Shown: in pieces, positions 9,772-57,871 of the stretch
Position numbering within the stretch: position 1 is the stretch's first letter
Layout of the letters: each line of letters starts with the position of its first letter
Origin: Escherichia coli 042
GTDB taxonomy: Bacteria > Pseudomonadota > Gammaproteobacteria > Enterobacterales > Enterobacteriaceae
Direction: 5' to 3' (one strand)
DNA: 64,000 nucleotides
Assembly: GCF_000027125.1 (NCBI RefSeq)
Contig: NC_017626.1
Made by a program: the position numbers and the translations under genes
Notes under the pieces: model-generated
What the model was told of the DNA's origin: nothing
Database searches by the model: none
Seen by the model: the letters and a program-made list of their open reading frames with translations, nothing else

Positions 9772-9787
9772 ATGTCTGAGTAAAACT

Positions 9788-25678: not shown

Positions 25679-25739
25679 TTATACTCCTGAAAATGCGTTG
25701 AGGTCGCAAATATAATTAAATAGTCTGACATAAATAAAA

Positions 25740-26060: not shown

Positions 26061-26063
26061 TAA

Positions 26064-26543: not shown

Positions 26544-26642
26544 AGCCTATCCTAAATTTGGCACCCATAACATAAACTGTGTAAGAATCAACGACTGCCC
26601 CCCCAAAAATGGGAAAATTTACTTATTATGCAAAGTTACTTA

Positions 26643-26897: not shown

Positions 26898-27322
26898 TAT
26901 TTAACACCATCTATTGCCTGGCATCGTATACAGCTAAAACCAGTAGCTAAAATCTCAACATAACTATCATAACCTGCTATAATATAATGTTTTAACTTTA
27001 ACCGTTTTTTAGGGTCATATAATCTCTCTTTTTCTTCAAGCGGTACAGAATTCATTACTTGATATATACCGGAGTCCAGATTTTCACCATCAACCTTCTT
27101 AATAACAATATTGTTATAGTTGGCTTCATGAAAATTGACGGTAGCACACTTAACTTCAGCAACTGTAGTGAAGACCAGTTCAATTTGAACATAATCTTTC
27201 TCTGTTGATATTAACTCCAGAGCATCTACTTTAATGTTGACGCCATCAGACTCTGTATATGTTAAAGATAAATAAGTTGTGGAAATCCTGAATCCAATCG
27301 ATTGTGATTTTAACACAAGCAT
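26897..27322 (-). CDS. Hypothetical protein (islet ORF E, about 141 aa)
   Basis: ORF 26897..27346 starts at a GTG; the in-frame ATG at 27320-27322 (MLVLKSQSIGF...) has AAGGAG 7 nt upstream and is preferred. First gene of the minus-strand cluster. Confidence 0.45.
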   Translation of the reverse strand: MLVLKSQSIGFRISTTYLSLTYTESDGVNIKVDALELISTEKDYVQIELVFTTVAEVKCATVNFHEANYNNIVIKKVDGENLDSGIYQVMNSVPLEEKERLYDPKKRLKLKHYIIAGYDSYVEILATGFSCIRCQAIDGVK

Positions 27323-27489
27323 AAACTCACTCCTTCCAGTAGGCACAGGTATAATTTATTCAGCTAATAAATAATTAAACCCACTCTACGGTAAGTTTAT
27401 TTTAATAATGAATGGTTATCTGCGCGCTACCGCCGTGCCCGGAAAAATATCTGCGGTTATATCACGGTAACTAATTTATTACCGTTAAT

Positions 27490-30710: not shown

Positions 30711-32699
30711 CTACTTTTCTTCCAGGTAACTCTCTTCGAAGATTTCAATAGGGAGTGGGCGAGCAAAAAGGAAGCCCTGGGCAATACCAACGCCCGCTTT
30801 TGCCAGCCAGTCGCGTTGTGCTTCAGTCTCCACGCCTTCGGCAATCATTTGTAAGTTCAGGCTTTGCGCCAACATGATAATTGCAGCAATCATGCTGCTA
30901 TCTTCCGGCAAGCCTTCAACAAACATTTTGTCGATTTTTAACACGTCGATTGGCAACGATTTCATATGCTGCAGCTGACGCAGCCCTGCGTAGCCCATGC
31001 CGAAATCATCCAGCGCCACCCGAACTCCGGCATTGCGCAGCGGACGGAGGATTGCCACCGCAGCATGAGGGTCGTCAATACGTCGGCTTTCTGTCACTTC
31101 CAGAATCAGTGTTCCCGGCTGAATGCGATAGCGGGTTAACAGTTCCAGCATATCCGCCACCATATTCGGGTGCATCAGTTGCAGCGCAGAGAGGTTTACC
31201 GACAAGGGCAGCATAATGCCGCGCTCTTGCCAGGCTGCAAGCAATCGACAGGACTCTTCCAGCACCCAGTGACCGACGGTAACCATCAGCCCACAGCACT
31301 CAATGCGATCGATTAAGCCATCCGGCAGATCCCAACTGCCATCCGGTTGCTGGATACGCAGTAACACTTCCGCACTGACCAGTTTACCGCTGTTCATCTC
31401 GACCTGTGGCTGTAACCAAATCGCAAACTGATGATTTTCCAGCGCATTAAGGATATCGCTCTCTTCCGTCAACCGCTGCTGGGCGGCTTCCATCTGCTGC
31501 GGATCAAAGAACTGAATCTGATTCTTGCCTTTATGGCGAGCGGTAAATGCCGCAGAAATAGCGCGACTGTAAAGCTGTTCGGCGGTGAGATCGCCGTAGA
31601 ACATCGCCACGCCAATGCTACAGTGCGGACGGAGTTGAATACGTTCAATCGGCAGGCGCTCGCTCATGATAGTGAGCACTTGCTGACCTAAAGTGATTGC
31701 GTGCCACGGTTCCTGTACACCATTGGCAATGACAGCAAAGTCATAACCACTAATCTGCGCGAGGATCATACGTGGCGACAGTACCGATTTGAGTTTTTCC
31801 ACCAGCGTCAGCAGCAGAATTTCTCGTTGCGCCTCTTTCAGCACGCCCGCAGTATCACGCAGGGTTTCACAGGTGATGATCATCAGCGCGGTGGTTTGTT
31901 TACGCGCGACAACCTGCTCCAGCATCTCCATCAGCAAGGCTTTGTTCGGCAAATCCGACACCGGGAAGCGCATCGCGTTTTCGTTCTGTTCTTCATAATG
32001 GCGCTGCAGCAATTGCTGGTTGAGGTTGTAACTGCGCACCAACATACCGATTTCATCATCCTGATGCAGACGCGGTAATGCCAGTTGGTGACCAACAAGC
32101 TCCTGGGCTGGGATGGCGTTAAGTTCGCGAGCAATATTGCGTAAAGGATGTAAAATCAGTCGATTAATACACCAGCTGATGGCGACGGTCAGGATAAGCG
32201 ACAAAAGTAAGTAAATGGTCACTAACGTTGAGAGGGTGCTCATCACGAACTTATACATGCGGAAGGAATCCGCCTGTAGCACCAGATAGGCAATTGGCTG
32301 CGGGTTTGCCGGACGTTCCAGCGAGTAAACGCCCAGCGAGATTTGCACCGGTAGCTCAAACAGGCGAGTAACCATTACCGGCACCGGACGCTCTGGAATA
32401 AAACTTTTACGCAGTGCCTGGAACTGGTTGGGCAGCACCACATCGGCACGGCTGACCACGCCTGCCGGTTTAATGCTGGCAAGAATAGCTTCCGCTTCGG
32501 GAATATCGCCTTTCAAAATAGCTGAAGATAAGGGTTCGCGGACAGAGCGAGCAATGCTTTCCAGTTGCGTAGCCGTGTTATAGCGATTCTGCTGGACCAG
32601 ATGGAACAGCAAAACGGTGCAAAAAATAAAAACGAACACCAGGACAACGGCTGCCACCATTGCCATCTGCTTGATTGTTAACGAGCGACTTACGCGCAA
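30711..32699 (-). CDS. pdeK: c-di-GMP phosphodiesterase PdeK (HAMP-GGDEF-EAL membrane protein)
   Basis: 662-aa ORF from a TTG at 32697-32699 preceded by GGAGA; in-frame ATGs at 32666 and 32660 are alternatives. EAL-domain motifs in the C-terminal half. Confidence 0.85.
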
Positions 32700-32780: not shown

Positions 32781-35700
32781 TTACCAGTCGGCGTAAGGTA
32801 TCAGCGGCTGCGGCGGTAAATCCATGTCACCCTGCCATCCGGCGGCGGAATAACGTACGTAGAGCAGGAAATGGCTGGGTGCGTAATCTTTCGCCTGCTG
32901 GATATCAATTGCCGTGCCGACAAACCAGTTGGAAGTAACACGTCGTTCAAGTAATGCCCGCGCCGTGTAGCCAAAGCCCTGACTGCTGCCGCCATCGTTC
33001 GATTGCCGCGCAGCTTCTTCCTGCCAGTCGGTCGGGATCAGATTCATCAGCGGATAACGCGGCATGGTTTTGGTGCGTGAATGCGACCACGAGCCAGACG
33101 CCCCCAGCTCCCACGACCAGTTTTCCGTCCGCTCCCGCCACATCACCGGTATGGCAAACGACAGGTATTCCTGCGGGCTGTAGTAACCGCCCTGACCAAG
33201 TGAGTAGCCACTCAGGTCTTTGTCGTAATGCCAGATCATGTTGTTCAGGCCGATGGTGACGCGGCGATTGTTCTGGTTAATGACCTTATAGTAATAGCCC
33301 GTCATCCAGCGCACGCGCCAGTTATCTTCGACATTTTTACCGGTTAACTGATCACCGCTAAGCGATGCCCAGACGCCGTTTGCTTCACCTTTATCGTAGC
33401 TCAGGCTTAGCCCCACGCCGTCGGCACGCACGCCGCCCCATTTTTTCCCGGTATTGCTCGGGGAGTCTTTTTGCCCGCCAAAGGCCAGCAAAGAACTGGA
33501 GATGGGCCGACGATGGGCGTTAACGGTGTAACCCAGCGGCCCGATATCATCGCTGTAACTGATGCCGCCGACCACATCCACCACATTGAAGCCCATCGGC
33601 GTAGTGCCGATATCCCAGCTCCAGACGTCATTTCGCCAGCCGACCGCCACGCTGGCACCGGAATCCGACTGGCTGCGGTTGCCGCTACAGTCTTGTAATG
33701 TACAGGTGCCCCAGTTGTCATCCCATTTGCCATCGGCATTAGTGGAAAAACTGCCGACGTTCATATTGACGAAATCACTACGAAAGAACATCCGCCCGTC
33801 AGAATACGGCGCATCCACCTGCAACATAGTGGTGTGCGCTTTCAGATCGGAGTAACCACCGGTGCCGCTCGAACCCCAGTAATCGTGCTCGAGGGTGACA
33901 TTAAGATCCTGCTGACGATAGAGGTCCGCCGCATCGCTGCGCACGCCGCGTTTCAGCCAGTCATCTTTCTCGTCATTGCGGGTCAGTCGGGTAAAGGTGT
34001 CGTTATCCTGTGGACGCATCGTGGTCACACCGGATGCAACCATGGCGTCTTTGTAGGTTTCCAGCGCCTGCGTTGGATCGCCCGCCTGCGCTTCAAACTT
34101 CGCACCGTCGCGCAGTACCATCGCGCTTTCCATCGACGGCGGCTGAGATTTTGCCTGCGGGATCAACTTATTAAACGTCTGCTGCGCCGCTGCGGTATCG
34201 CCAAGCTGCGCCTGTGCCAGCGCCACGCGCCGCTGTGTGTTCAGCGAGGCGTTATCGGTAGCGGGCAGTTTCGCCAGCTGGCTACGTGCCGCCGCTTTGT
34301 CACCGGCAGCAATATCCACTTCCGTCAGACCAAGAATGGCATCGGCGTTAGTTGGCTCCCGCGTCAGGACATTCTGATATGCAGCGCGAGCGGCGGTGTA
34401 ATCACGTCGTTGTTGCGCCCAGTCAGCCAGCGTGAGGTCTATGCGCGTGGAAGGTGGTTGCTGGCGCAGCATCGCTTCCGCTTCAGCTTCTTTGCCGCTT
34501 TCTCGCAGGCGATTAGCGGTTTCCAGTACCTGATTGCTTTGCAGTCGATTAACCAGCTCCTGAATATTGCTGCTCCACTGCGCGCGCGGCAGGCTGTTGA
34601 TATGCGCCAGCGCCGCTCTGTCCTGGTCATGACCAGAGAGATACAGCCCGTAAGCGTAAACCTGCTCCGGGTCGTTCGGCTTCTGCTGCGCCAGATTACG
34701 CATTAACGTATCGGCCTGGCTGCGTTGTCCGGCCTGCCAGAGATCCTGCGAAAGTCGGTAAGTAATCCATACGCTGCCGGGGTCCAGCGCCAGTCGTTGC
34801 CGCTGAAGTGCTGCCGCCTGCGCCCATTTGCCCTGGTTTTCCAGTGCCTCTGCCTGCTGTGCCAGACGGTCGTTTTGCAGGCTGCGTTCGATATCATCAA
34901 TGCTTCGCCGCTGACTGGCAGAGAGCGAGGCGATAAACGCTTCAGCTTTTTCTGGCGATTGCTGGCGGTATATATTCGCCAGCCCGCGCACGGCGTTAGT
35001 GTTGCCGCTGTCCATACGCAAGGTCTGCTGATAATAACGTTCGGCGGCGGGATAATCTTTTCGCGCCATCGCCACATCGCCCAGCCCCAGCACTGCATAG
35101 CTGTCGGTGTTATCGACATTACGCGCCTGCTGGAACAGGCGTTCTGCCCGGTCAGGATTATTGGCTTTCAGCGCAGCATCGCCCTGCTGGATCGCCAGCC
35201 AGTAGCGGTTTACTTTCAGGAGACTGTTCCATTTGTCGTTGTTGCTGCTGTGCGGATCCAGGGCGAGGGCTTTTTCCAGATTCGCCACCGCATTGGCGCG
35301 ATCGCCTTTCTGAGAATACGCCTGGCCCAGCGCCCCCAGAGCCTCACTGTCTTTCGGGTTCGCCCGCACTGCCTGTTGTAGTTCGGGAATGGCTTTACCC
35401 GCCATACCAGAGTCCACCGCCGCTAAACCTTGCGCACGAGCGCGGAAAGCAGGGTCGGCCAGCTGTTTTTGCTGTTCTGCCAGTTGCGATTGCGCCGCAG
35501 CTACGCTATCGCCATCACTAAAGATCGAGAGATATTTTTTCAGCGCCGACACACTGGCATCGCTGACGGGCATGTCTTTAATCTGCCCGTACCAGATTTT
35601 AGAGGCCCCTTCGCGCCCGGCGTTTGATTTCGCCATCTGTTCCAGGACGGCAAAACCTTCGTCACGGCGATCGCTACTAAACAGCAATAGCGCCAGATTG

Positions 35701-36254
35701 TTTTGTAGGCCCGTATTGCCCGGCGTATCCGCATTAATGCGTTTTAGCTGATTAATCGCTTCGCCACGGCGAGCCGGAATTTTCGCCACCGTACTCCAGT
35801 ACTCGACGGCAATGTCACCTTCCGGCGGCGCACCGTTGAACAGTTTGTTGTAACTCGCCACAGCTTCTTCTGCATGACCGGTCGTCGCCTGCAATCTTGC
35901 CTGTTGCAGTGCCTGACGACCATCCGGCGTGGAAAGCAACATTGTGGTCCGCGACGATTTATACGCATTTGAACTCGGCGCTAACTGCGACAGCCGATCG
36001 AGCTGTTTTTGCGCGCCATCAATATCGCCCTGACGTAACAGAGAACGGAAACGGGCGGCAACGACGTCCGGGTTATTCGGATCAATAAGTTCCAGACGAT
36101 ACAACGACTGTTGCACCAGGTCTTCACGATGGGTCGCTTCGCCTAACCGAACTTGCTCCAGCAACTGTTGCTGAGCGGTTGGTGCTGCCTCGACCATCGG
36201 CATGACGGCCAGACCGAGAGAAAGCGTGAATATGTTTAGTGTGAATTTGCGCAT
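32781..36254 (-). CDS. bcsC: Cellulose synthase outer-membrane subunit BcsC (TPR repeats plus beta-barrel)
   Basis: 1157-aa ORF with signal peptide, extensive TPR region and C-terminal beta-barrel; last gene of bcsRQABZC. Confidence 0.95.
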
Positions 36255-37342
36255 TCCTGGCCCCAGTCAGGTAATAACTCACCTTTTGTCGAGAAGCGGA
36301 AACGGTGTTGATCCCAGCCTTGTCCAAACAGGGTCAGCACATAGTTGTAATAGGCATCGCTGCCGGGAAAGTTATCGGCCACGCGCTGGCGCTGAACGGC
36401 CTGCGCATCGCGGTTTTGTAAAAAGGGCAGCATGGCGGCAGAAAAACCGACCGGTCCTTTACCCTGCGCTTTCCCCGTAGCCACATCCACTTTTTCTGGC
36501 GGATAGCCGTTTTTCTCGGTGAATGTCGCCATCGGTTTAAACCGGTTGAGCATCCGCGCTTTTTGCGGATCGCTGTCAGGCATCATGCCTACCCACATGT
36601 AAACGCGGATCGCGTCGTAGCTGCTGATCAATGTTTTTTCGGCTTTTAGCTGCCAGCCTTTGTCTTTCTCATAGCGCACCCAGTCTGGCGAAAAGCCTTT
36701 CGGGGCGGTTTCCAGCAATAAACGTTGATTGGTTTCGCGCAGCGTAGTCCACGGCGCGCCAAAGCGGGTGAAATACTGCGCCAGCGTCGGCGGCAGGTAG
36801 CTGGGGTTAAAACGCCAGCTGTTATCCTCAGCAAAACCCACTTTGCCCGGTAACAACATGGAACCCAGCCCAGGCACCGTCACCACTTCCTCCCGCGCGA
36901 TACGTTTTAACAACGCGCTGCCGATGTCGGTATAACGCTGCTCTTTCCACAAACGCCCCGCCTCCAGCAACGACCAGGCCATCCAGACATCACCATCGGA
37001 GGCCGAATTGCTGTCCAGCACTTCCCACTTACTGTTCTCTTTCTTGCCCCACAGCCAGGCAGGCAAACGTTCTTTTAAAGAACCCTGAGCGAGATTGTTC
37101 TGCGTCCAGTCGAGAATATTATCGAAAGCTGCACGGTCGTTAGCCGCCAGGGCAAAGAACATGCCGTAACTTTGCCCTTCGGAGGTGGTGATTTTGCGCG
37201 CGTCGCTGGGGTCGATGACGCGCCCTTCCTGACTGATGTAATCCTTTTTAAACTGCTCCCAGGCAGGCCAGGTACAGGCTGCCTGAACACTAAAGGCAGC
37301 CAGCAGCAGCATCGTCACGAGTCCACTACGCAACACATTCAT
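36236..37342 (-). CDS. bcsZ: Periplasmic endo-1,4-beta-glucanase BcsZ (GH8)
   Basis: ORF 36236..37348 trimmed to the ATG at 37340-37342 (MNVLRSG...); 368 aa; overlaps the bcsC start by 19 nt. Confidence 0.93.
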
Positions 37343-37348
37343 CTTCAA

Positions 37349-39688
37349 TTACTCGTTATCCGGGTTAAGACGACGACGGCTGATAATACGCAGCAGACGC
37401 CACAGTACCCATGCCAGCAGCACGACGCTGATTGCCGCCAGCACCGCCAGCAGAATCGGATGGTTTGCCAGCGCATACCATAAGCGTTCGAACCACGGCA
37501 GATGGCCAACGTAATAGACGTCGCCAACGCGTAGGCTATTGATACCGGACTCGCGGATCACCGCGACCGAACCGAACATGGTGGCGCGTTTGCCGCTATC
37601 GTTCACCGCATCGTTAAGCATTTCATAACCGCGTGGGCTATCTGCCAGCAGCGCAATCACGCTGCGCTGGTCGTTATACGGCGACTGGAAGCCAATCACC
37701 GCCGCCATCGCACCGGAAGAGGTCAGCGTTGACTGGGTTTCTGCCGCGCGATCGCTCTCGTCCGGAACAATGCCGGGGAACGGGGTCTGGCGCATCGGCG
37801 TTTTCACCCAGCTTTCGGTCGCCTGCACCAACAGGTCGATCTGCTTGTCGTCTTTCAGTTTGTCCGGGATACCACCGATGATCATGATGTCGGCATCTTT
37901 GCCCTGAATGGTGCTGCCATCATCGGTCACCGTCAGATTAATCGCCGGGAAGCCCGTCTGTGCGCCGATAAAACCAACAGTATTCAGCAAGGTTTCCATC
38001 TGTGCTTCGTTAGGCGTTTTCGGCATCACGGTGATGGTTTGCGACAGATCCGCCATCCGGCTGAACGGGAAGCCCGCGTTAGCAAAGGCGCGTAGATCCG
38101 GCATCGGGATGAAGTGGTAATACTTCGAGAAGTCGATGGTGGAGTCGTCACCAATCACCACATGATTCTGCACCGGCTGGAAGGTAATACAGTTATCCAC
38201 CGAACCGCCAGGCATCGGGTTCATATACTCAAAGTCAAAGCGCAGCTGGTTGGTCGCGCCCAGTTTCAGCGCCGGAATAGAGACATCCGTTTTGCCATCC
38301 AGCAAACCTTGTAATACCGGAATCCGCAGCAGCAGGCGGTTCGCCTCCTGTTTGCTGCTCAGATTGAATGATTGCAGGAACTGGTTATTCAGGCTGATAT
38401 CCATCCGCGAACTGTCTTTCACCGGCGGCATGGTGTAGCGATAGTTGATATCCATATCAATGCCGGTACTACGCATCAAGTAGAGATCTGGCGGCAGGTT
38501 TAGCGAAACATTAATCGCTGCTGGCTCAAGACCGCTGGATTGCAACTGTTCTTCATAGGTTTTCAGTTCACCAAAGGTGACCGGACGATCGGTACGCACC
38601 CAGTTCGGCGCATCGTACGGCTTACGCGGTAGCAGCGGTTTCACTTCATTCACTACCACGCTTTCACCACGGAACAGAATGTTACCCTGAGCGATACCTT
38701 TCGCTGCCTGCAACAGGTCTTTGTCGTCACGACCAAACACCACCAGCAGTTTGACGTAAGGATTCTGCGGATGGTTGATCATCTCAATCACCGGGGCTTT
38801 TACCGCCGGATGATCGCGCAGGAAGTCCGGCCGTTTGTCGTTGGTTGCAAAGACAATGGCATTGCGATCCGGCAGTTGGTTATAGAGCACCGGGAAGTTC
38901 TGCCCACGCCAGCCAGAACGCGAACCAAACCACGAGGCAACAATGGCAGATGCTTGTTGCAGCCCAACATCCGGCGCACCCGCAAAGACCATCGGCAAGG
39001 TGTTAGTACGGTTATCACGCGGGTCAAAGAATGGTACCGGGAAGTGTGACAGGTCATTCTTCACATTCAGGGTCTGATAGGTCAAATCCAGTCCACTGCT
39101 CCGCCCAACATCCAGCCAAAGCGTGGTGCTGGCCGGGTTTTCGCACACGTCCTGATAATGGCCGACAAACTCCAGCCGCACACGGTTGAAATCAGTAATA
39201 AACAGCGGGTTAATGGGCATTTGTGCCAGCGTTTTTTTACCCAACTGTTCTTTGGTCACTGGCAGCACGCCCATCAGTTCATCATTGAGATAAACCTTTA
39301 ACTGCGACTGGACAGGCAGTAACGATGGCGATGGCGTGTATTCGAGATTGAGCATCGCCTTCGTCACCACTTCATCGCTGCGCATACCAAACTCAATGCT
39401 GCCGTTCGGGTTAATGCCACGTAGCACCATGCTGCCCGGCGGCGGCGCAATTTGCGCAAAGGTCAGCTTCACATCACGCGAAGGACCGTTCTGCGCCACG
39501 ACTGGCGCATCAGCGCCCTGCACGCCTGGCATCACTTGTCCCACCTGCGGATTTTGTTCCGTCTGGGCGGCTACAGCTGGCTCAGCATTGATCAGTGGTT
39601 GCGTTGCTGGCGTCGCCTGCGTCATGAAAGAGGGGAACGCACTCATCCCCATAGCCACTGCACAAATCCAGAATAGTTTTCTTTTCAT
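37349..39688 (-). CDS. bcsB: Cellulose synthase periplasmic subunit BcsB
   Basis: ORF 37349..39775 trimmed to the ATG at 39686-39688 (MKRKLFWICAVAMGMSAFPSFMTQA...); 779 aa; C-terminal TM anchor. Confidence 0.94.
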   Translation of the reverse strand: MKRKLFWICAVAMGMSAFPSFMTQATPATQPLINAEPAVAAQTEQNPQVGQVMPGVQGADAPVVAQNGPSRDVKLTFAQIAPPPGSMVLRGINPNGSIEFGMRSDEVVTKAMLNLEYTPSPSLLPVQSQLKVYLNDELMGVLPVTKEQLGKKTLAQMPINPLFITDFNRVRLEFVGHYQDVCENPASTTLWLDVGRSSGLDLTYQTLNVKNDLSHFPVPFFDPRDNRTNTLPMVFAGAPDVGLQQASAIVASWFGSRSGWRGQNFPVLYNQLPDRNAIVFATNDKRPDFLRDHPAVKAPVIEMINHPQNPYVKLLVVFGRDDKDLLQAAKGIAQGNILFRGESVVVNEVKPLLPRKPYDAPNWVRTDRPVTFGELKTYEEQLQSSGLEPAAINVSLNLPPDLYLMRSTGIDMDINYRYTMPPVKDSSRMDISLNNQFLQSFNLSSKQEANRLLLRIPVLQGLLDGKTDVSIPALKLGATNQLRFDFEYMNPMPGGSVDNCITFQPVQNHVVIGDDSTIDFSKYYHFIPMPDLRAFANAGFPFSRMADLSQTITVMPKTPNEAQMETLLNTVGFIGAQTGFPAINLTVTDDGSTIQGKDADIMIIGGIPDKLKDDKQIDLLVQATESWVKTPMRQTPFPGIVPDESDRAAETQSTLTSSGAMAAVIGFQSPYNDQRSVIALLADSPRGYEMLNDAVNDSGKRATMFGSVAVIRESGINSLRVGDVYYVGHLPWFERLWYALANHPILLAVLAAISVVLLAWVLWRLLRIISRRRLNPDNE

Positions 39689-39698
39689 CGCGTTATCA

Positions 39699-42317
39699 TC
39701 ATTGTTGAGCCAAAGCCTGATCCGATGGTTGTGCCGTTTCGCTCCGCTCCGGGCGGCGCGGAATAAACGATACAACCCAGGAAACCAGAGAAGTCAGCAC
39801 ACGGAATATGCCCTTCACCGAAGAAGGCGCAAACTCCGCCAGATGGCGGTAGCCACGGAAGCCGAGCTTCAGAATATCCAGCAGACTTTCCAGCGGCTTA
39901 TCTTCCGGGTAGCTGTCCTGCCAGAGCGCCCATGTATCCGCACGGGCAAACGTACACTGCACAAAATCGATATGTTGCTGGGTGGTGAGCGGCATTAATT
40001 TCAGCCCAACTTCATTACCCATCACGCGCGCCACCTGGGTGGGGAAGACGTATTCCTGCTGACCGCGTTTAAGCAACAGATTCACTTTCTGCCCTTCCAG
40101 AATCTGCGCCTGACCGTTGATCTTGATCCCCAAACCACCGTCGGAGAAATCCTGAACGGTACACGAGAAGAGGTGACCATCTTCGCGGGCAATTGCCGCG
40201 GGCATCGTCATCTCCACGCGGTGCGATCGGCGTACCTGTTTGCTTTCTACCGATACCGCAACTGCGCCGCCAAGAACAATCAGGTTGTAGAATACCCACA
40301 CCATACTGACGACCACGGTGAGCATCTCGGTTGGCGGGCCATAGAAGTAGCGCCAGATGCCTACCGCAACGCCCACCAGGTTGAGCAGAACAAGGAAGAT
40401 GTAGGGCCGCGAGATCACCCAGTCGACGTACTCTTCTTCCACCAGTCCACCTTTGGCGGTAACGTTAAATTTGCCTTTGTGCGGGTTAATCAGCGCCACC
40501 AGCGTCGGTGGTGCGATATACCACGCCAGCACCGTTTCGTAGATTTCACTCCAGAAAGAGTGGCGATATTTGCCCTGGATCTTCGAGTTGGTCAGGCTGG
40601 CATGAATCATATGCGGCAGCACGAACAGGGCGATCATCAACGCTGGCGCATAGATGATGTAGGCATGAAGCAGTAGGAACGCCAGCGGCGCAGTCAGGAA
40701 GATCAGCCGTGGAATGCCCGACAAGAAGTGGAACATGGCGTTGACGTAACATAGCCGCTGAGCAAACTTCAGCCCTTTACCGGTGAGCGGGTTATCGAGA
40801 CGGAAGATTTGCACCATCCCGCGCGCCCAGCGAATACGCTGACCGATATGCGCCGACAGACTTTCGGTCGCCAGCCCCGCCGCCTGCGGAATACGCATAT
40901 ACGCGGAGGTATAGCCACGACGGTGCAAACGCAGAGAAGTATGCGCATCTTCAGTCACGGTTTCGACAGCAATGCCGCCAATTTCATCCAGCGGCTTACG
41001 GCGAATCACCGCACAGGAACCGCAGAAGAAAGTGGCGTCCCACATATCGTTGCCATCCTGCACCAGACCATAGAACAGCGTGCCTTCGTTCGGTGTTTTA
41101 CGGAAACGTCCCAGGTTGCGTTCAAACGGGTCCGGTGAGAAGAAGTGGTGCGGCGTCTGCATCATCGCCAGTTGTTTTTCTTTCAGGAACCAGCCCATGG
41201 TCATTTGCAGGAACGATCGCGTTGGTACGTGGTCGCAGTCGAAAATCGACACGAACTCGCCTTTGGCATATTTCAGCGCATTGTTGATGTTGCCCGCTTT
41301 CGCATGTTCATGAGTGGTACGGGCGATATATTTCACCCCCACGTTTTGCGCAAACTGGCGAAACTCTTCCCTGCCGCCGTCATCAAGGATCCAGATGTTC
41401 AGCTTGTCTTTCGGCCAGTCGATACCCAGCGAGGCGTAAATGGTATTTTTCACCACGTTGAGATCTTCGTTGTAAGTCGGGACAAAGATATCCACCGACG
41501 GCCACAACGACATATCTTTCGGCAATGGCACCGGCTGACGATTCAGCGGCCATACTACCTGGAAGTAGCCGAGCACCAGCACAATCCACGCGTACGTTTC
41601 GGCGAACAGCAGAATAAGCCCGCACACCAGGCTGACCGGATCGTCCCAGTTCAGCGTAGAGGTGTAGCGCCACCAGATATAACGGCAAGAAACGGTCAGC
41701 GACAGCACAATCAACATTAGCGCCGAGAAGCGCCCCGGCATCCGCCGTACGATCAGCGCTACCCCCCACAGCAGCATCAGGAAGATAAACTGCGCCAGCG
41801 GGTTAAACGGCTGAGTAACGCAGATTAACGCCAGAATCAGCGAGAAGGTGACGATGATACCGAGGATCAACCGCCGCGCCCCGGCACTCAAATGGCCGAG
41901 CTCTTTTTTCTCATCAAGATGCTGTGTTTTATGGCTAACGCGCTCAGGCAGCTCGTTCATCCATTGATGGTAACGTCCACGAATATTTTGCAGACCTGAA
42001 AATGCCCGCCTGCGCGGTTTCGGCGTTTCTTTGCGCGATGCACCGATCAGTAACCAGCATGTTTGAATGAGATAACGGACCGGATCCAGCGGACGCGGAC
42101 GCGAGGCGTTGATATGCGGATACAGGTTTTTATGTTCTGCGCGAATACGCTGCCAGCGCGGGTGCTCCAGCGGAATAAAAATCCAGGCCAGGATCAACCA
42201 AAAACAGCCGAGCGTCGCGCTGAAAGCCGACGCGCCATGACGACGATAATCGCGATAACGCCCGATAAGCCGCGCGTTGACCGGCGGGATAAGCAACCAC
42301 CGGGTCAGGATACTCAT
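39699..42317 (-). CDS. bcsA: Cellulose synthase catalytic subunit BcsA (GT2, C-terminal PilZ domain)
   Basis: 872-aa ORF with a GT2 region (DCDH, QRIRWARG) and a C-terminal PilZ c-di-GMP-binding region. Confidence 0.96.
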   Translation of the reverse strand: MSILTRWLLIPPVNARLIGRYRDYRRHGASAFSATLGCFWLILAWIFIPLEHPRWQRIRAEHKNLYPHINASRPRPLDPVRYLIQTCWLLIGASRKETPKPRRRAFSGLQNIRGRYHQWMNELPERVSHKTQHLDEKKELGHLSAGARRLILGIIVTFSLILALICVTQPFNPLAQFIFLMLLWGVALIVRRMPGRFSALMLIVLSLTVSCRYIWWRYTSTLNWDDPVSLVCGLILLFAETYAWIVLVLGYFQVVWPLNRQPVPLPKDMSLWPSVDIFVPTYNEDLNVVKNTIYASLGIDWPKDKLNIWILDDGGREEFRQFAQNVGVKYIARTTHEHAKAGNINNALKYAKGEFVSIFDCDHVPTRSFLQMTMGWFLKEKQLAMMQTPHHFFSPDPFERNLGRFRKTPNEGTLFYGLVQDGNDMWDATFFCGSCAVIRRKPLDEIGGIAVETVTEDAHTSLRLHRRGYTSAYMRIPQAAGLATESLSAHIGQRIRWARGMVQIFRLDNPLTGKGLKFAQRLCYVNAMFHFLSGIPRLIFLTAPLAFLLLHAYIIYAPALMIALFVLPHMIHASLTNSKIQGKYRHSFWSEIYETVLAWYIAPPTLVALINPHKGKFNVTAKGGLVEEEYVDWVISRPYIFLVLLNLVGVAVGIWRYFYGPPTEMLTVVVSMVWVFYNLIVLGGAVAVSVESKQVRRSHRVEMTMPAAIAREDGHLFSCTVQDFSDGGLGIKINGQAQILEGQKVNLLLKRGQQEYVFPTQVARVMGNEVGLKLMPLTTQQHIDFVQCTFARADTWALWQDSYPEDKPLESLLDILKLGFRGYRHLAEFAPSSVKGIFRVLTSLVSWVVSFIPRRPERSETAQPSDQALAQQ

Positions 42318-43066
42318 GATTTACTCCCGACTGGCGTTTTCAGCCCGGAATAGTTCAACAGGCACCAGTTAGCCAGCGTCAGTATCTCTTCAGCGGCCAG
42401 CGCATCACTGCGATATTCACCGACTGGTTGCTTAGCCGCCAGGCATTCAGCCATCGCTTCATCACGATGAATGAGCATTGGCAGTAATCGGCGCTGGCTT
42501 TGCAACCAAAGCTGGTAAATATCGTCCTGAACTTGACTGCCGATACGGAAGTCATTAATCAAAATATGCGCGCCATCCGGCAGCGCCTGCTGATGCAGCC
42601 GGATATGGCAGTTGGCATCCACATTGACGATTGCCAGCGAGTGATCGCACAAACTCAGCAGCTGGTGGGTTATCTGCGAGGAATCACGCGGTAAGTCGAT
42701 TAAAATCCACTGGTAACGCCCGCTGGCTTTTAGTTGCTGTAAGCCGGAGCAAATATCGCTCAGCCGGGTTTGCCAGTGCTGTGGATTTTCTTGTTCTTCA
42801 ATGGATAACTGACCAAAAGGCAGCAAATCGAGCTGCGAGGTATAGCGCAACCCGGCGTCACGCCAGTCCTGGTCATCCAGCATAGCTCTGGCCCAGCCCT
42901 GACGGTGGGTAAAATCAACGTTAAATGACAGGCGCAACAAGTTGTCCGGGCAGGCATCGACCACCAGGACATTTTCTCCCAACATTTGTAATGACCAGGC
43001 TAATGCGGCGGTGATGGTTGTTGTCCCCACGCCTCCCCGCACCCCCTGCAATCCCAGTACGGCCAT
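42314..43066 (-). CDS. bcsQ: Cellulose biosynthesis ATPase BcsQ (MinD/ParA family), intact
   Basis: 250-aa uninterrupted ORF MAVLGLQGVRGGVGTTTITAAL... with a deviant Walker A. Codon 6 is TTG (Leu), not the TAG I recall for K-12. Confidence 0.9.
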   Translation of the reverse strand: MAVLGLQGVRGGVGTTTITAALAWSLQMLGENVLVVDACPDNLLRLSFNVDFTHRQGWARAMLDDQDWRDAGLRYTSQLDLLPFGQLSIEEQENPQHWQTRLSDICSGLQQLKASGRYQWILIDLPRDSSQITHQLLSLCDHSLAIVNVDANCHIRLHQQALPDGAHILINDFRIGSQVQDDIYQLWLQSQRRLLPMLIHRDEAMAECLAAKQPVGEYRSDALAAEEILTLANWCLLNYSGLKTPVGSKS

Positions 43067-43077: not shown

Positions 43078-43266
43078 CTACTTTTGTTGCGCAAACTCTG
43101 CCAGCAACGGCCAGCGTTTTAATGCCGCGGCCAACTGTTCGCGTTGGGAAATATCGGCATAATCAATATCAGGCAGTGAAAATGCCTGCTTTAACGCCAA
43201 AATATCATTCTGGAAGATATAGCCTATCGCGGGATCAGGCAGAGTATCTGGTTCATTGTTATTCAT
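43078..43266 (-). CDS. bcsR: Cellulose biosynthesis small protein BcsR
   Basis: ORF 43078..43308 trimmed to the ATG at 43264-43266 (MNNNEPDTLPDPAIGYIFQNDILALKQAF...); 62 aa; directly upstream of bcsQ. Confidence 0.85.
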   Translation of the reverse strand: MNNNEPDTLPDPAIGYIFQNDILALKQAFSLPDIDYADISQREQLAAALKRWPLLAEFAQQK

Positions 43267-43537
43267 TTGCTTGATCCCTATGAAATAACCGTACCGTTCA
43301 TGAGACAATTCTAACCGTGAGCATTTCGCCGGTTTATTGTTTACGGCGAGACGGGAATTTGCTCACTTTTTGACTTTCCGTTACGCAACAAAAAAAGTTA
43401 AAAACGAAAAGACTAAAATCACACGTCTTGTGACCTGCTAAATTGATTCACATGCTAAATCTGATAAGTTTTAATTTCAATGGTAGGTTTATTTCTTAGC
43501 TTTCGCTAGTAAACTGATAATCAGACAAAATGATGAC

Positions 43538-45109
43538 ATGAGGGACATTGTGGACCCTGTATTCTCTATCGGTATCTCATCATTATGGGATGAGCTGCGA
43601 CATATGCCAGCAGGCGGCGTCTGGTGGTTTAACGTCGATCGCCATGAAGATGCTATCAGTCTGGCGAATCAAACAATTGCATCCCAGGCTGAAACCGCAC
43701 ACGTCGCGGTCATTAGCATGGACAGCGATCCGGCGAAAATCTTTCAATTAGATGATTCTCAAGGACCGGAAAAAATAAAATTATTTTCAATGCTAAATCA
43801 TGAAAAAGGTCTATACTATTTGGCCCGTGATTTGCAGTGTTCTATTGATCCCCATAATTACCTTTTTATTCTTGTTTGCGCAAATAACGCATGGCAAAAC
43901 ATTCCTGCCGAGCGGCTTCGCTCATGGTTGGATAAAATGAATAAATGGAGCAGGTTAAACCATTGTTCGCTTTTGGTAATTAATCCCGGAAATAATAACG
44001 ATAAACAATTTTCATTGTTGCTTGAGGAATACCGTTCACTTTTTGGTCTTGCCAGTTTGCGTTTTCAGGGCGACCAACATTTGCTGGATATTGCCTTCTG
44101 GTGCAACGAAAAAGGGGTTAGCGCCCGTCAGCAGCTTAGCGTTCAGCAACAAAATGGTATCTGGACATTAGTTCAAAGCGAAGAGGCGGAGATCCAACCA
44201 CGCAGCGACGAAAAACGCATTCTGAGTAATGTTGCTGTACTGGAAGGTGCGCCGCCGCTATCAGAACACTGGCAACTGTTCAACAATAACGAAGTCCTGT
44301 TCAATGAAGCCCGTACCGCTCAGGCGGCGACGGTGGTCTTTTCTTTACAACAAAATGCGCAAATCGAGCCACTGGCCCGCAGCATTCATACTCTGCGTCG
44401 CCAGCGCGGTAGTGCGATGAAAATCCTCGTACGGGAAAATACCGCTAGCCTGCGCGCCACCGATGAACGTTTGTTATTGGCCTGCGGTGCAAATATGGTT
44501 ATCCCATGGAATGCCCCACTCTCCCGCTGTCTGACGATGATCGAAAGCGTGCAAGGGCAGAAGTTTAGTCGCTATGTGCCGGAAGATATCACTACCTTGC
44601 TGTCAATGACCCAGCCGCTCAAACTGCGTGGTTTCCAGAAGTGGGATGTGTTCTGTAATGCCGTCAACAACATGATGAATAACCCTCTATTACCTGCCCA
44701 CGGTAAAGGCGTTCTGGTTGCCCTACGTCCGGTACCGGGTATCCGCGTTGAGCAAGCCCTGACGCTGTGTCGCCCTAACCGCACCGGCGATATCATGACT
44801 ATTGGCGGTAATCGGCTGGTGCTGTTTCTCTCATTCTGTCGGATTAACGATCTGGATACCGCGTTGAATCATATTTTCCCATTGCCGACTGGCGACATTT
44901 TCTCAAACCGTATGGTCTGGTTTGAAGATGATCAAATCAGTGCCGAGCTGGTGCAGATGCGCCTGCTTGCCCCAGAACAATGGGGCATGCCGCTGCCTTT
45001 AACGCAAAATTCTAAACCGGTCATTAATGCCGAGCACGATGGTCGCCACTGGCGACGAATACCAGAACCAATGCGACTGTTAGATGATGCTGTGGAGCGC
45101 TCATCATGA
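43538..45109 (+). CDS. bcsE: c-di-GMP-binding cellulose biosynthesis protein BcsE
   Basis: 523-aa [36 protein letters not shown]..., divergent from bcsR. Confidence 0.93.
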
Positions 45110-45297
45110 TGACCATCAGCGATATCATTGAAATTATTGTCGTTTGCGCACTGATATTTTTCCCGCTGGGCTATCTGGCGCGGCACTCTTTGCGACGCAT
45201 TCGCGACACCTTACGTTTGTTCTTTGCTAAACCTCGTTATGTTAAACCGGCCGGGACGTTACGCCGCACGGAAAAAGCCAGGGCAACCAAAAAATGA
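45106..45297 (+). CDS. bcsF: Small membrane protein BcsF
   Basis: 63-aa single-TM ORF overlapping the bcsE stop and the bcsG start by 4 nt each. Confidence 0.88.
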
Positions 45298-46973
45298 CTC
45301 AATTTACGCAAAATACCGCCATGCCTTCTTCCCTCTGGCAATACTGGCGCGGCCTTTCCGGCTGGAACTTCTATTTTCTGGTTAAGTTCGGCCTGTTGTG
45401 GGCGGGATATCTTAACTTCCATCCGCTCCTCAATCTGGTGTTTGCCGCGTTTCTGCTGATGCCCATTCCGCGCTACAGCCTGCATCGCTTACGCCACTGG
45501 ATTGCCCTGCCGATCGGCTTTGCTTTGTTCTGGCATGACACCTGGTTGCCTGGCCCGGAAAGCATAATGAGCCAGGGTTCGCAGGTGGCGGGGTTCAGTA
45601 CCGATTATTTAATCGACCTTGTCACACGCTTTATTAACTGGCAGATGATTGGGGCCATTTTTGTTTTATTAGTGGCCTGGTTATTCCTGTCACAATGGAT
45701 TCGCATTACCGTTTTTGTGGTTGCCATTCTGCTATGGCTGAACGTACTTACCCTGGCGGGACCAAGTTTCTCCTTGTGGCCAGCCGGTCAACCGACGACC
45801 ACTGTAACAACGACGGGTGGCAACGCAGCGGCAACCGTTGCGGCGACGGGTGGCGCACCGGTAGTGGGTGATATGCCCGCACAAACTGCACCGCCAACAA
45901 CGGCGAACCTTAACGCCTGGCTGAATAATTTCTATAACGCGGAGGCGAAACGTAAATCGACCTTCCCGTCTTCGCTGCCCGCTGATGCTCAACCATTTGA
46001 ACTACTGGTGATTAATATCTGTTCGCTTTCCTGGTCGGATATTGAAGCCGCCGGGTTGATGTCGCATCCGCTGTGGTCGCATTTCGATATTGAGTTCAAG
46101 AACTTTAACTCCGCCACCTCCTACAGTGGCCCGGCGGCGATCCGTTTACTGCGCGCCAGCTGCGGGCAGACTTCGCACACTAATCTGTATCAACCGGCAA
46201 ATAATGACTGCTATCTGTTTGATAACCTGTCGAAACTGGGCTTTACCCAGCACCTGATGATGGGACATAACGGCCAGTTCGGCGGTTTTTTGAAAGAAGT
46301 TCGCGAAAATGGCGGCATGCAGACCGAATTGATGGATCAAACAAATCTGCCGATTATTTTGCTGGGCTTTGATGGTTCGCCGGTTTATGACGATACCGCC
46401 GTGCTTAACCGCTGGCTGGACGTTACCGAAAAAGATAAAAACAGCCGTAGTGCCACGTTCTACAACACGCTTCCACTGCATGACGGCAACCATTATCCGG
46501 GCGTCAGCAAAACAGCGGATTACAAAGCGCGGGCGCAGAAATTCTTTGATGAACTGGACGCCTTCTTTACTGAACTGGAGAAATCGGGTCGTAAAGTGAT
46601 GGTGGTCGTGGTGCCGGAACACGGCGGCGCGCTGAAGGGCGACAGAATGCAGGTATCTGGCCTACGTGATATCCCTAGCCCGTCTATCACAGACGTCCCC
46701 GTTGGGGTGAAATTCTTCGGCATGAAGGCACCACATCAGGGGGCACCGATTGTCATCGACCAACCGAGCAGCTTCCTGGCTATCTCCGATCTGGTGGTTC
46801 GCGTTCTTGATGGCAAGATTTTCTCCGAAGACAATGTTGACTGGAAAAAACTCACCAGTGGGTTGCCACAAACAGCACCGGTCTCCGAGAACTCAAATGC
46901 AGTAGTTATTCAATACCAGGATAAACCGTACGTTCGCCTGAACGGCGGCGACTGGGTGCCTTACCCGCAATAA
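45294..46973 (+). CDS. bcsG: Cellulose phosphoethanolamine transferase BcsG
   Basis: 559-aa ORF with N-terminal TM helices and a C-terminal alkaline-phosphatase-like domain. Confidence 0.93.
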
Positions 46974-47059
46974 GAACGAAAAAGGCCGCAGAGTTTCACC
47001 CCTGCGGCCTGATCCGGGCGCAAATTGCCATTACGGCAGCCTGACGCCCGCATGACACG

Positions 47060-47167
47060 TTACTTCCGCTTATTCAGCGAGTTCACGATCAGACTGGCAA
47101 GAATGCCAGCAATGACCGGAGCCGCTAAATCATGCCAGAAGGCCATGCCCAGTTCTGCGAGCGTCAT
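47060..47167 (-). CDS. ldr: Ldr-family type I toxin peptide (35 aa), copy 1
   Basis: MTLAELGMAFWHDLAAPVIAGILASLIVNSLNKRK; ATG at 47165-47167. The ORF-track 80-aa ORF is an upstream in-frame extension. Confidence 0.85.
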   Translation of the reverse strand: MTLAELGMAFWHDLAAPVIAGILASLIVNSLNKRK

Positions 47168-47215
47168 ATAGCCGCCTCTGTTGTAATGACAACGTTTCGC
47201 GGCTATTCTTGAGTT

Positions 47216-47283
47216 GTTTGGGTTCAAGATTAGCCCCCGTGATGTTGTCAGGTGCATACCTGCAACGTGCGGGGGTTTTCTCT
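47216..47283 (+). ncRNA. rdl: Rdl-family antisense RNA, copy 1
   Basis: Plus-strand element ending in the hairpin gcccccg...cgggggttttctct within the ldr leader; coordinates inferred from my recollection of RdlD. Confidence 0.55.
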
Positions 47284-47542
47284 CTCCAGCAACCAATGCC
47301 ACCAGGGATTAAGCCCCCGCAACATTGCGCCTCACCGGAACCCTTCCGGCTTGCCGCTGATTCTACGGCCATTTTTGTTCGTCGAAATCCATCACTTCTT
47401 CACTCTGTGCTGCGCATTCCGCAGAATATTATCCGCTTGCAGCCGTTGCATTTTTCTTACGAAAAAGGCCGCAGAGTTTCACCTCTGCGGCCTGGTCCGG
47501 GCGCAAATTGCCATTACGGCAGCCTGACGCCCGTCTGACACG

Positions 47543-47650
47543 TTACTTCCGCTTATTCAGCCAGTTCACGATCATGCTGGCAAGAATGCCAGCAATGACC
47601 GGAGCCGCTAAATCATGCCAGAAGGCCATGCCCAGCTCTGCGAGCGTCAT
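47543..47650 (-). CDS. ldr: Ldr-family type I toxin peptide (35 aa), copy 2
   Basis: Same frame and length as copy 1; C-terminus ...ASMIVNWLNKRK; not reported separately in the ORF track. Confidence 0.8.
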   Translation of the reverse strand: MTLAELGMAFWHDLAAPVIAGILASMIVNWLNKRK

Positions 47651-47698
47651 ATAGCCGCCAGTGTTGTAATGACAACGTTTCGCGGCTATTCTTGAGTT

Positions 47699-47766
47699 GT
47701 GTAGGTTCAAGAATGGCCCCCGTCATATTGTCAGGTGAATACCTGCAACGTGCGGGGGTTTTCTCT
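47699..47766 (+). ncRNA. rdl: Rdl-family antisense RNA, copy 2
   Basis: Repeat-unit copy of the rdl element with terminator hairpin. Confidence 0.5.
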
Positions 47767-48025
47767 CTCCAGCAACCAATGCCACCAGGGATTAAGCCCC
47801 CGCAACATTGCGCCTCACCGGAACCCTTCCGGCTTGCCGCTGATTCTACGACTGTTTTTCTGTTCCGAAATCCATCACTTCTTCACTCTGTGCTGCGCAT
47901 TCCGCAGAATATTATCCGCTTGCAGCCGTTGCATTTTTCTTACGAAAAAGGCCGCAGAGTTTTATCCCTGCGGCCTGATCCGGGCGCAAATTGCCATTAC
48001 GGCAGCCTGACGCCCGTCTGACACG

Positions 48026-48133
48026 TTACTTCTGCTTGTTCAGCCAGTTCACGATCATGCTGGCAAGAATGCCAGCAATGACCGGAGCCGCTAAATCGTG
48101 CCAGAAGGCCATGCCCAGCTCTGCGAGCGTCAT
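48026..48133 (-). CDS. ldr: Ldr-family type I toxin peptide (35 aa), copy 3
   Basis: MTLAELGMAFWHDLAAPVIAGILASMIVNWLNKQK. Confidence 0.85.
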   Translation of the reverse strand: MTLAELGMAFWHDLAAPVIAGILASMIVNWLNKQK

Positions 48134-48181
48134 ATAGCCGCCTCTGTTGTAATGACAACGTTTCGCGGCTATTCTTGAGTT

Positions 48182-48249
48182 GTGTAGGTTCAAGAATGGC
48201 CCCCGTGATGTTGTCAGGTGCATACCTGCAACGTGCGGGGGTTTTCTCT
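48182..48249 (+). ncRNA. rdl: Rdl-family antisense RNA, copy 3
   Basis: Repeat-unit copy of the rdl element with terminator hairpin. Confidence 0.5.
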
Positions 48250-48508
48250 CTCCAGCAACCAATGCCACCAGGGATTAAGCCCCCGCAACATTGCGCCTCA
48301 CCGGAACCCTTCCGGCTTGCCGCTGATTCTACGACTGTTTTTCTGTTCCGAAATCCATCACTTCTTCACTCTGTGCTGCGCATTCCGCAGAATATTATCC
48401 GCTTGCAGCCGTTGCATTTTTCTTACGAAAAAGGCCGCAGAGTTTCACCTCTGCGGCCTGGTCCGGGCGCAAATTGCCATTACGGCAGCCTGACGCCCGT
48501 CTGACACG

Positions 48509-48616
48509 TTACTTCCGCTTGTTCAGCCAGTTCACGATCATGCTGGCAAGAATGCCAGCAATGACCGGAGCCGCTAAATCATGCCAGAAGGCCATGCCCA
48601 GTTCTGCGAGCGTCAT
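48509..48616 (-). CDS. ldr: Ldr-family type I toxin peptide (35 aa), copy 4
   Basis: MTLAELGMAFWHDLAAPVIAGILASMIVNWLNKRK. Confidence 0.85.
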   Translation of the reverse strand: MTLAELGMAFWHDLAAPVIAGILASMIVNWLNKRK

Positions 48617-48664
48617 ATAGCCGCCTGAGTTGTAATGACAACGTTTCGCGGCTATTCTTGAATG

Positions 48665-48732
48665 GTCTAGATGCAAGAATGGCCCCCGTGGTGTTGTCAG
48701 GTGCATACCTGCAACGTGCGGGGGTTTTCTCT
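48665..48732 (+). ncRNA. rdl: Rdl-family antisense RNA, copy 4 (RdlD-like)
   Basis: gtctagatgcaagaatggcccccgtggtgttgtcaggtgcatacctgcaacgtgcgggggttttctct, the copy closest to the RdlD sequence as I recall it. Confidence 0.6.
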
Positions 48733-48991
48733 CTCCAGCAACCAATGCCACCAGGGATTAAGCCCCCGCAACATTGCGCCTCACCGGAACCCTTCCGGCT
48801 TGCCGCTGATTCTACGGCCATTTTTGTTCGTCGAAATCCATCACTTCTTCACTCTGTGCTGCGCATTCCGCAGAATATTATCCGCTTGCAGCCGTTGCAT
48901 TTTTCTTACGAAAAAGGCCGCAGAGTTTTATCCCTGCGGCCTGATCCGGGCGCAAATTGCCATTACGGCAGCCTGACGCCCGTCTGACACG

Positions 48992-49099
48992 TTACTTCTG
49001 CTTGTTCAGCCAGTTCACGATCATGCTGGCAAGAATGCCAGCAATGACCGGAGCCGCTAAATCGTGCCAGAAGGCCATGCCCAGCTCTGCGAGCGTCAT
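48992..49099 (-). CDS. ldr: Ldr-family type I toxin peptide (35 aa), copy 5
   Basis: MTLAELGMAFWHDLAAPVIAGILASMIVNWLNKQK. Confidence 0.85.
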   Translation of the reverse strand: MTLAELGMAFWHDLAAPVIAGILASMIVNWLNKQK

Positions 49100-49147
49100 A
49101 TAGCCGCCTCTGTTGTAATGACAACGTTTCGCGGCTATTCTTGAGTT

Positions 49148-49215
49148 GTGTAGGTTCAAGAATGGCCCCCGTGATGTTGTCAGGTGCATACCTGCAACGT
49201 GCGGGGGTTTTCTCT
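49148..49215 (+). ncRNA. rdl: Rdl-family antisense RNA, copy 5
   Basis: Repeat-unit copy of the rdl element with terminator hairpin. Confidence 0.5.
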
Positions 49216-49574
49216 CTCCAGCAACCAATGCCACCAGGGATAAAGCCCCCGCAACATTGCGCCTCACCGGAACCTTTCCGGCTTGCCGCTGATTCTACGA
49301 TTGCTTTTTACCGTCAGCACCCGGCAATCTTCCTCATTGCGCGATGCCTTCCAGCTTAATTTCTTTATTTGCAATAGTTGCAGTTCATATCCGGGCTGAC
49401 TCCAGACTGGTAGTGAAATGCGCAATTTTGTAGAATTGCGCCTCCTCGCGACCTCCCCAGTGAATCTGTTGCCTCATTTTTTACATACTGCGTATTCGAC
49501 TTCTCCACCTGTTGCGCAAGAGAAACTGGGTTTATTCATTTTTGCGAGGCCGACTTCTTTCTGGACAGGACTTT

Positions 49575-57794: not shown

Positions 57795-57871
<77 letters not shown>

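Follow-up and report, generated by a model that had tools for sequence, protein, structure and literature searches.

A full-length, wild-type bcsQ allele in a complete bcs cellulose locus of Escherichia coli

The stretch of DNA analysed here, 64,000 nucleotides in length and hereafter called the window, carries all nine bcs genes (bcsRQABZC and bcsEFG) in two divergent operons, each gene being full length and gapless relative to its K-12 counterpart. All nine predicted proteins scored above the equivalog cut-offs of NCBIfam, and each alignment covered its profile from end to end. The features of the region are as follows.

30711..32699, minus strand: pdeK (hmsP), c-di-GMP phosphodiesterase beside the bcs operon, intact, 662 aa (NF008807, 781.5 bits)
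32781..36254, minus strand: bcsC, outer-membrane TPR/porin subunit, 1157 aa, full length (NF008520, 2201 bits)
36236..37342, minus strand: bcsZ, periplasmic endoglucanase, 368 aa, full length (NF008305, 595.5 bits)
37349..39688, minus strand: bcsB, periplasmic subunit, 779 aa, full length (NF008325, 1387.6 bits)
39699..42317, minus strand: bcsA, cellulose synthase catalytic subunit, 872 aa (NF008558, 1793 bits)
42314..43066, minus strand: bcsQ, intact, 250 aa, SIMIBI/MinD-like ATPase of the cellulose secretion complex (ORF, NF007460, PDB 6YBU)
43049..43051, minus strand: bcsQ codon 6, TTG (Leu); TAG in K-12
43078..43266, minus strand: bcsR (yhjR), first gene of the bcsRQABZC operon, 62 aa (NF040717, 75.8 bits, cut-off 46)
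43267..43537, no strand assigned: divergent intergenic control region between bcsR and bcsE, 271 bp
43538..45109, plus strand: bcsE, c-di-GMP-binding regulator, 523 aa (NF011619, 1189.9 bits)
45106..45297, plus strand: bcsF, membrane anchor, 63 aa (TIGR03493, 116.4 bits)
45294..46973, plus strand: bcsG, phosphoethanolamine transferase, 559 aa (TIGR03368, 817 bits)

The original prediction stated that bcsQ is open for all 250 codons and that its sixth codon is TTG, and both points were confirmed by the ORF of the window and by direct readout of the codon. The frame runs from ATG to TGA with zero internal stops, and codon 6 appears as CAA on the plus strand. When the protein was scored against the BcsQ equivalog model NF007460, it reached 538.6 bits where 399 is required, and the alignment spanned positions 1-249 of the 250 in the profile; against TIGR03371 it reached 297.3 bits (cut-off 157.85). 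Judged by the NF007460 score and the match to PDB entries 6YBU and 6YAR, this is not a chance ORF. The P-loop at the N-terminus (GVRGGVGTT, residues 8-16, including T15) was intact, and T15, C39, R156, N171, and R219, residues named in structural and mutational work (PMC8892547), were all kept. At least 1,000 public contigs encode exactly this protein; the variants D65 and S129 were found in 311 and 460 genomes, respectively. Within the operon, bcsQ lies between bcsR and bcsA; bcsQ starts 11 nt after the bcsR stop, and its own TGA shares bases with the start codon of bcsA (ATGA).

The remaining eight bcs genes had no internal stops and encoded proteins with 98.4-100% amino-acid identity to those of K-12; over all nine Bcs proteins, 30 substitutions were counted, codon 6 excluded. 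BcsR differed by V23L and kept R51 and W52. Between the window and K-12, bcsA showed 31 nucleotide differences, of which one changed an amino acid (M41L), a pattern that points to continuing purifying selection. The GT-2 catalytic motifs of BcsA are D, DxD, TED, and QxxRW, and its c-di-GMP-binding PilZ motifs are RxxxR and DxSxxG. BcsA of the window kept the former (DCD360, TED455, and QRIRW493) as well as the latter (RRSHR696...DFSDGG), and FFCGS430 was also present. BcsB (7 substitutions) had the same sequence as its counterpart in isolate O17_K12a, BcsZ (2 substitutions) kept Glu55, and BcsC carried 7 substitutions. In the other operon, BcsF was 100% identical to K-12; BcsE (2 substitutions) kept the I-site motifs RATD306 and RTGD415 along with R503/H504, and BcsG (5 substitutions) kept the nucleophile Ser278, Cys243, Glu442/His443, and His396. 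BcsG S278 and the RxxD I-site residues of BcsE are named in published work (PMC8892547, PMC11379886). The bcsR-bcsE intergenic region, compared by eye, differed from K-12 at few positions. The adjacent PdeK, which has been functionally linked to cellulose synthase (PMC7397504), carried 4 substitutions. Full-length genes, NCBIfam scores, and intact key motifs thus bear out the prediction that bcsRQABZC and bcsEFG are complete.

Given that nine intact bcs genes with their key residues are present, the locus is genetically competent for the synthesis of phosphoethanolamine-cellulose; the complete genes and motifs support the predicted cellulose capacity at the level of the locus only. The phenotype of the strain also depends on the regulators csgD, dgcC (adrA), and rpoS, which are located outside the window. 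It is therefore conceivable, although we regard it as somewhat unlikely, that the strain is cellulose-negative despite intact ORFs, owing to a defective or silent regulator elsewhere or to hypomorphic missense changes such as BcsQ G65D, BcsQ A129S, or BcsZ S63F. Precedents exist: BL21 and H10407 have no premature stops in their bcs genes and yet were calcofluor-negative at 30 C (PMC5944007), and cellulose loss is frequent and convergent across E. coli lineages (PMC10881479). However, the substitutions seen here are lineage-wide alleles present in hundreds of genomes, the residues with known functions are all unaffected, and the scarcity of amino-acid changes in bcsA points to purifying selection.

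When bcsQ was aligned with that of K-12 strain MG1655 (NC_000913.3, 3695233-3695985), 19 nucleotide differences were found, 18 of them besides codon 6. In MG1655, codon 6 is TAG through the change T17A and the gene is annotated as a pseudogene, as had been anticipated; K-12 is thus not identical to the window at this codon. The TAG that marks the K-12 laboratory lineage was not found at bcsQ codon 6 of the window, which carries TTG instead. The distribution of the two alleles was then measured with an exact 33-mer spanning codon 6 in 5,426 complete E. coli genomes. The TTG 33-mer was present in 3,592 genomes and the TAG 33-mer in 349; all 60 of the TAG genomes that were sampled were K-12-like laboratory strains (4.52-4.70 Mb). 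Roughly 5,285 complete genomes bear bcsQ. In the supplementary tables of one survey (PMC10881479), truncated bcsQ is listed for ST10, ST167, and ST617, with no codon given there. We conclude that TTG is the wild-type state of the species, and that it is ordinary because the stop codon, judging by the 60 TAG genomes sampled, is confined to the K-12 laboratory lineage. That TTG might be a sequencing or assembly error masking a stop codon is most improbable: nothing speaks for it, 3,592 complete genomes of independent origin contain the same 33-mer, and close relatives have an identical haplotype around it.

The original prediction also held that the K-12 TAG is polar on bcsA/B and renders the strain cellulose-negative. 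The second part stood: repairing TAG to TTG in W3110, which yields AR3110, restored cellulose (PMC7397504, PMC5014196, PMC5944007). As W3110 becomes cellulose-positive through this repair alone, K-12 carries working copies of the other eight bcs genes. Polarity, on the other hand, is one of two explanations left standing in the sources consulted, the other being loss of BcsQ itself (PMC5944007). A search downstream of codon 6 for a C-rich, G-poor Rho-loading signal that might account for polarity revealed C only slightly in excess of G, around nt 281-440. In K-12, TAG at codon 6 would remove BcsQ and would probably lower BcsA as well, given the translational coupling of bcsQ to bcsA across what becomes a 735-nt untranslated stretch.

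The sequence was 1-3% divergent from K-12, and the bcs genes other than bcsQ were 0-2.7% divergent from MG1655. Moreover, five ldr/rdl units were present in the window compared with one in K-12, and a 2.3-kb islet was present that is absent from K-12; collinearity and the extra islet were inferred from the annotation tables of K-12 and strain 118UI. The five ORFs of the islet had no match in NCBIfam, PADLOC, or Pfam scans. The chu haem-uptake genes adjoin the left end of the window in its nearest relatives. The bcsQ differences and the nearby structural differences clearly bear out the prediction that the DNA is not from a standard K-12 laboratory strain. An origin from a K-12 derivative with the stop repaired, for example AR3110 (which carries exactly TTG at codon 6), was likewise rejected, and has a negligible probability in view of the 18 further bcsQ differences from MG1655, the divergence of the other bcs genes, the ldr/rdl units, the islet, and the chu neighbourhood.

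Among natural isolates, BEC1-S17-ESBL-09 differed from the window by 6 nt in the 14,281 nt of the bcs cluster, and eight of the nine Bcs proteins were identical to those of O17_K12a; all but BcsE were also common to other isolates. In both of these isolates, every bcs gene is annotated as intact. The bcs alleles of the window are those of many natural isolates. The cluster was nearly identical to that of O17-type and other isolates resembling phylogroup D; no MLST genes lie within the window. In Supplementary Data 3 of PMC10881479, 68% of ST69 genomes are recorded with truncated bcsA plus truncated bcsC. Should the window derive from ST69, which is less likely than not, it would represent the cellulose-retaining minority, or the ancestral state, within a pandemic ExPEC clone whose other members are losing cellulose. 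It would then offer a useful natural point of comparison in testing whether virulence increases when cellulose is lost.

Taken together, these data strongly suggest that the source is a natural E. coli from outside the K-12 lineage, in which a wild-type bcsQ forms part of a complete Bcs locus of the E. coli type (type II). According to publications on strains 1094 and AR3110, BcsQ is an ATPase resembling MinD and combines with BcsR to give ATP-bound BcsR2Q2. By analogy with the crystallised protein, from which it differs at 3 of 250 residues, BcsQ of the window would be expected to form the same ATP-dependent BcsR2Q2 sandwich dimer and to be needed in cellulose secretion. As in those two strains, BcsR2Q2 would be recruited to the membrane by BcsE and BcsF and would dock on the PilZ domain of BcsA, with BcsQ as an essential part of secretion; BcsG would then attach phosphoethanolamine to the polymer. 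As nothing in the bcs locus is broken, we infer that it can make pEtN-cellulose once it is activated by CsgD, DgcC, and c-di-GMP signalling, the genes for which are located elsewhere.

The original prediction is thus right, and what it describes is unremarkable: most natural isolates have this wild-type form of bcsQ, which was to be expected here and is fully described in the literature. The DNA comes from such an isolate and not from a laboratory strain of K-12. The cellulose locus is without the loss-of-function lesions that are common in K-12, ST95, ST1193, O157 (ST11), Shigella, and others. Such a genotype call is useful in predicting biofilm matrix or virulence traits, and has little importance beyond annotation.

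Compared with known systems, MinD/ParA-type SIMIBI ATPases (e.g., MinD, PDB 4V02) have the N-terminal P-loop/fold region in common with BcsQ (residues 6-152). This similarity is weak (E about 1e-5), with scores that fall far short of the cut-offs for the MinD and ParA models, and BcsQ has GGVGTT where MinD/ParA have a lysine-containing Walker A. The K-12 bcsQ pseudogene (b3534, L6*) has the same locus and length and 97.5% nucleotide identity, but its codon 6 is TAG whereas that of the window is TTG; the window bcsQ is therefore not the K-12 pseudogene allele. AR3110 bcsQ(wt), repaired from the TAG of W3110, has TTG at codon 6 as in the window, and the other AR3110 bcs genes are collinear with those of the window at 98-100% protein identity; the strain background differs, and bcsQ shows 18 other nucleotide differences with three amino-acid changes (G65D, A129S, and A249K). 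Structures of the Bcs macrocomplex are available for the E. coli 1094 system (9FNN/9FP0/9FP2). BcsQ of this cellulose-producing strain (PDB 6YBU, 6YAR, 6YB3, 6YB5; 250 aa) matched end to end with E = 1e-167. The P-loop GVRGGVGTTT, residues T15, C39, R156, N171, and R219, and the placement between bcsR and bcsA are the same in both, and the three residues at which the window differs from 6YBU are G65D, A129S, and N172D.

The original prediction held that bcsQ is intact in this window, so that the bcs locus should be cellulose-proficient. The bcsQ frame (42314-43066, minus strand) ran from ATG to TGA and was open throughout its 250 codons, beginning ATG GCC GTA CTG GGA TTG; codon 6 was TTG (Leu; plus-strand CAA, 43049-43051), exactly as had been stated. 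When the protein was compared with the NCBIfam equivalog NF007460, it covered the profile end to end at 538.6 bits (cut-off, 399), and it aligned over all 250 residues, with 3 substitutions, to crystallised E. coli BcsQ (PDB 6YBU, 6YAR, and others; E = 1e-167), which together exclude a chance open reading frame. Residues T15, C39, R156, N171, and R219 were all kept; names of important Bcs residues were taken jointly from PMC8892547, PMC11379886, and established knowledge of BcsA.

In K-12 strain MG1655, bcsQ (b3534, NC_000913.3 3695233-3695985) is annotated as a pseudogene. Base-by-base comparison revealed 19 differences over 753 nt, including T17A in MG1655, which converts codon 6 from TTG in the window to TAG in K-12, as predicted; the others were synonymous apart from G65D, A129S, and A249K (K-12 to window). 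The claim that this stop makes K-12 cellulose-negative agrees with the literature: the SNP was given as 'TTG/TAG (17 T>A)', with cellulose regained on repair (PMC5944007), and AR3110, a W3110 derivative in which TTG replaces the TAG at codon 6, is thereby cellulose-proficient (PMC7397504, PMC5014196). Allele counts were approximated by megablast matches of a SNP-centred 33-mer, the seed of which requires an identical central base. The TAG 33-mer was found in 349 of 5,426 complete E. coli genomes. Sixty of these, sampled across the ranking, were all 4.52-4.70 Mb and mostly bore laboratory names (MG1655, BW25113, DH5alpha, DH1, HB101, J53, MC4100, TG1, XL1-Blue, and others), the remainder being K-12-like in size or of serotype O16:H48. 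The TTG 33-mer was found in 3,592 of the 5,426, and bcsQ-bearing genomes with neither 33-mer had mismatches elsewhere within it. No fewer than 1,000 public contigs carried the exact 250-aa protein; among complete genomes, 311 had the D65 haplotype and 460 the S129 haplotype. Because of these TTG, exact-protein, and haplotype counts, TTG at codon 6 is not special; the window has the species wild-type state, an ordinary condition that is already fully described.

Complete bcsRQABZC and bcsEFG operons had also been predicted, and all nine genes were found as full-length matches to K-12:

43078-43266, minus strand, bcsR
42314-43066, minus strand, bcsQ
39699-42317, minus strand, bcsA
37349-39688, minus strand, bcsB
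36236-37342, minus strand, bcsZ
32781-36254, minus strand, bcsC
43538-45109, plus strand, bcsE
45106-45297, plus strand, bcsF
45294-46973, plus strand, bcsG

Each aligned with K-12 without gaps or internal stops at 98.4-100% amino-acid identity and scored above the curated NCBIfam cut-off of its own family. BcsA kept DCD360, FFCGS430, TED455, QRIRW493, and the PilZ motifs RRSHR696...DFSDGG, which are established functional motifs of BcsA. Also kept were RATD306, RTGD415, and R503/H504 in BcsE; Ser278, Cys243, Glu442/His443, and His396 in BcsG; Glu55 in BcsZ; and R51/W52 in BcsR. Since repair of bcsQ alone turns W3110 into a producer, the K-12 copies of the other eight genes are functional, and the window proteins differ from these by 0-7 substitutions each. 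The 31 nucleotide differences in bcsA yielded just one amino-acid change (M41L), a sign of continuing, strong purifying selection; strong purifying selection on cellulose synthase was likewise remarked in PMC5944007. Two nearby c-di-GMP phosphodiesterase genes, pdeH (23194-23961) and pdeK (30711-32699), were intact, with 3 and 4 substitutions, respectively, relative to K-12.

In the cellulose producer E. coli 1094, BcsQ is a SIMIBI (MinD-like) ATPase that, in mutual stabilisation with BcsR, forms an ATP-bound BcsR2Q2 'sandwich'; this complex is bound by BcsE, brought to the inner membrane by BcsF, and docked on the BcsA PilZ domain, secretion being impossible without it, and BcsG puts phosphoethanolamine on the polymer (PMC7439463, PMC8892547). 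Every part of this mechanism is encoded intact in the window and, judging by near-identity, would work as in E. coli 1094. In the window, bcsQ and bcsA meet at ATGA, where the stop of the former overlaps the start of the latter. If codon 6 were a stop, ~735 nt would go untranslated and this coupling would be lost, and polarity on bcsA is therefore plausible; PMC5944007 allows either BcsQ loss or polarity as the K-12 defect.

CsgD, DgcC, and RpoS, regulators required for cellulose, are encoded elsewhere than in the window. Loss of bcs function is frequent and convergent (PMC10881479), with bcsA plus bcsC truncated in 68% of ST69 genomes and bcsQ truncated in many ST10, ST11, ST32, and ST405 genomes (its Supplementary Data 3). 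It is rather unlikely, though well worth considering, that the strain is cellulose-negative under standard assay conditions despite a competent locus: BL21 and H10407 are calcofluor-negative though their bcs genes lack premature stops (PMC5944007). None of the bcsA, bcsC, or bcsQ truncations listed in PMC10881479 was present in the window. For these reasons, the prediction is supported at the level of the locus, which is genetically competent for cellulose synthesis, with nine intact genes and key residues kept.

Over the 14.3-kb bcs cluster, 312 genomes were at least 99% identical, the isolate BEC1-S17-ESBL-09 differing by 6 nt and the stool isolate O17_K12a by 12 nt; 8 of 9 Bcs proteins were identical to those of O17_K12a, and RefSeq annotates every bcs gene as intact in both isolates. 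Eleven of the 12 differences from O17_K12a fell within ~1 kb of bcsE (43923-44911), in what looks like a small recombination patch. In the blood isolate GN02461 (NZ_CP095533.1), bcsQ (L002:20001-20795) is annotated at 795 bp, 42 bp longer than in the window, and the break of its BLAST match into two segments, each with 100% identity, is suggestive of an in-frame duplication within the gene.

The left part of the window matched genomes in which it adjoins the chu haem-uptake genes. Between kdgK and yhjJ lay a 2.3-kb AT-rich islet (25094-27346, minus strand; GC 35-39% versus 50-57% in the flanks), which K-12 lacks and which only 169 of the 5,426 complete genomes carry in full. Its five small ORFs (194, 106, 159, 84, and 149 aa) are annotated as hypothetical proteins in those carriers, and 0 of 5 matched Pfam, NCBIfam, or PADLOC. 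Other features were ordinary for this chromosomal region:

57285-57871, a tRNA, identified as tRNA-Pro (proK) by comparison with K-12 and GN02461, then a pair of RtT repeats (Rfam RF00391, 97-100 bits) and a match to naRNA4
9663-9776, GadY

Between bcsG and yhjV, a tandem array (46976-49309) comprised 4.8 units of 483 bp and contained five 35-aa ldr type I toxin ORFs, each paired with a plus-strand rdlD-family antisense RNA (Rfam RF01813, 78-90 bits):

47060-47167, minus strand, ldr ORF 1
47543-47650, minus strand, ldr ORF 2
48026-48133, minus strand, ldr ORF 3
48509-48616, minus strand, ldr ORF 4
48992-49099, minus strand, ldr ORF 5

A K-12 or repaired K-12 source is ruled out by the chu-adjoining left part, the islet, and the five ldr/rdl units, and the prediction that the DNA is not from a standard K-12 laboratory strain was thus correct. 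In contrast to the five units of the window, this site holds one in K-12 (ldrD/rdlD), three in GN02461, and four in the closest relatives, BEC1-S17-ESBL-09 and O17_K12a, so ldr/rdl copy number varies from strain to strain.
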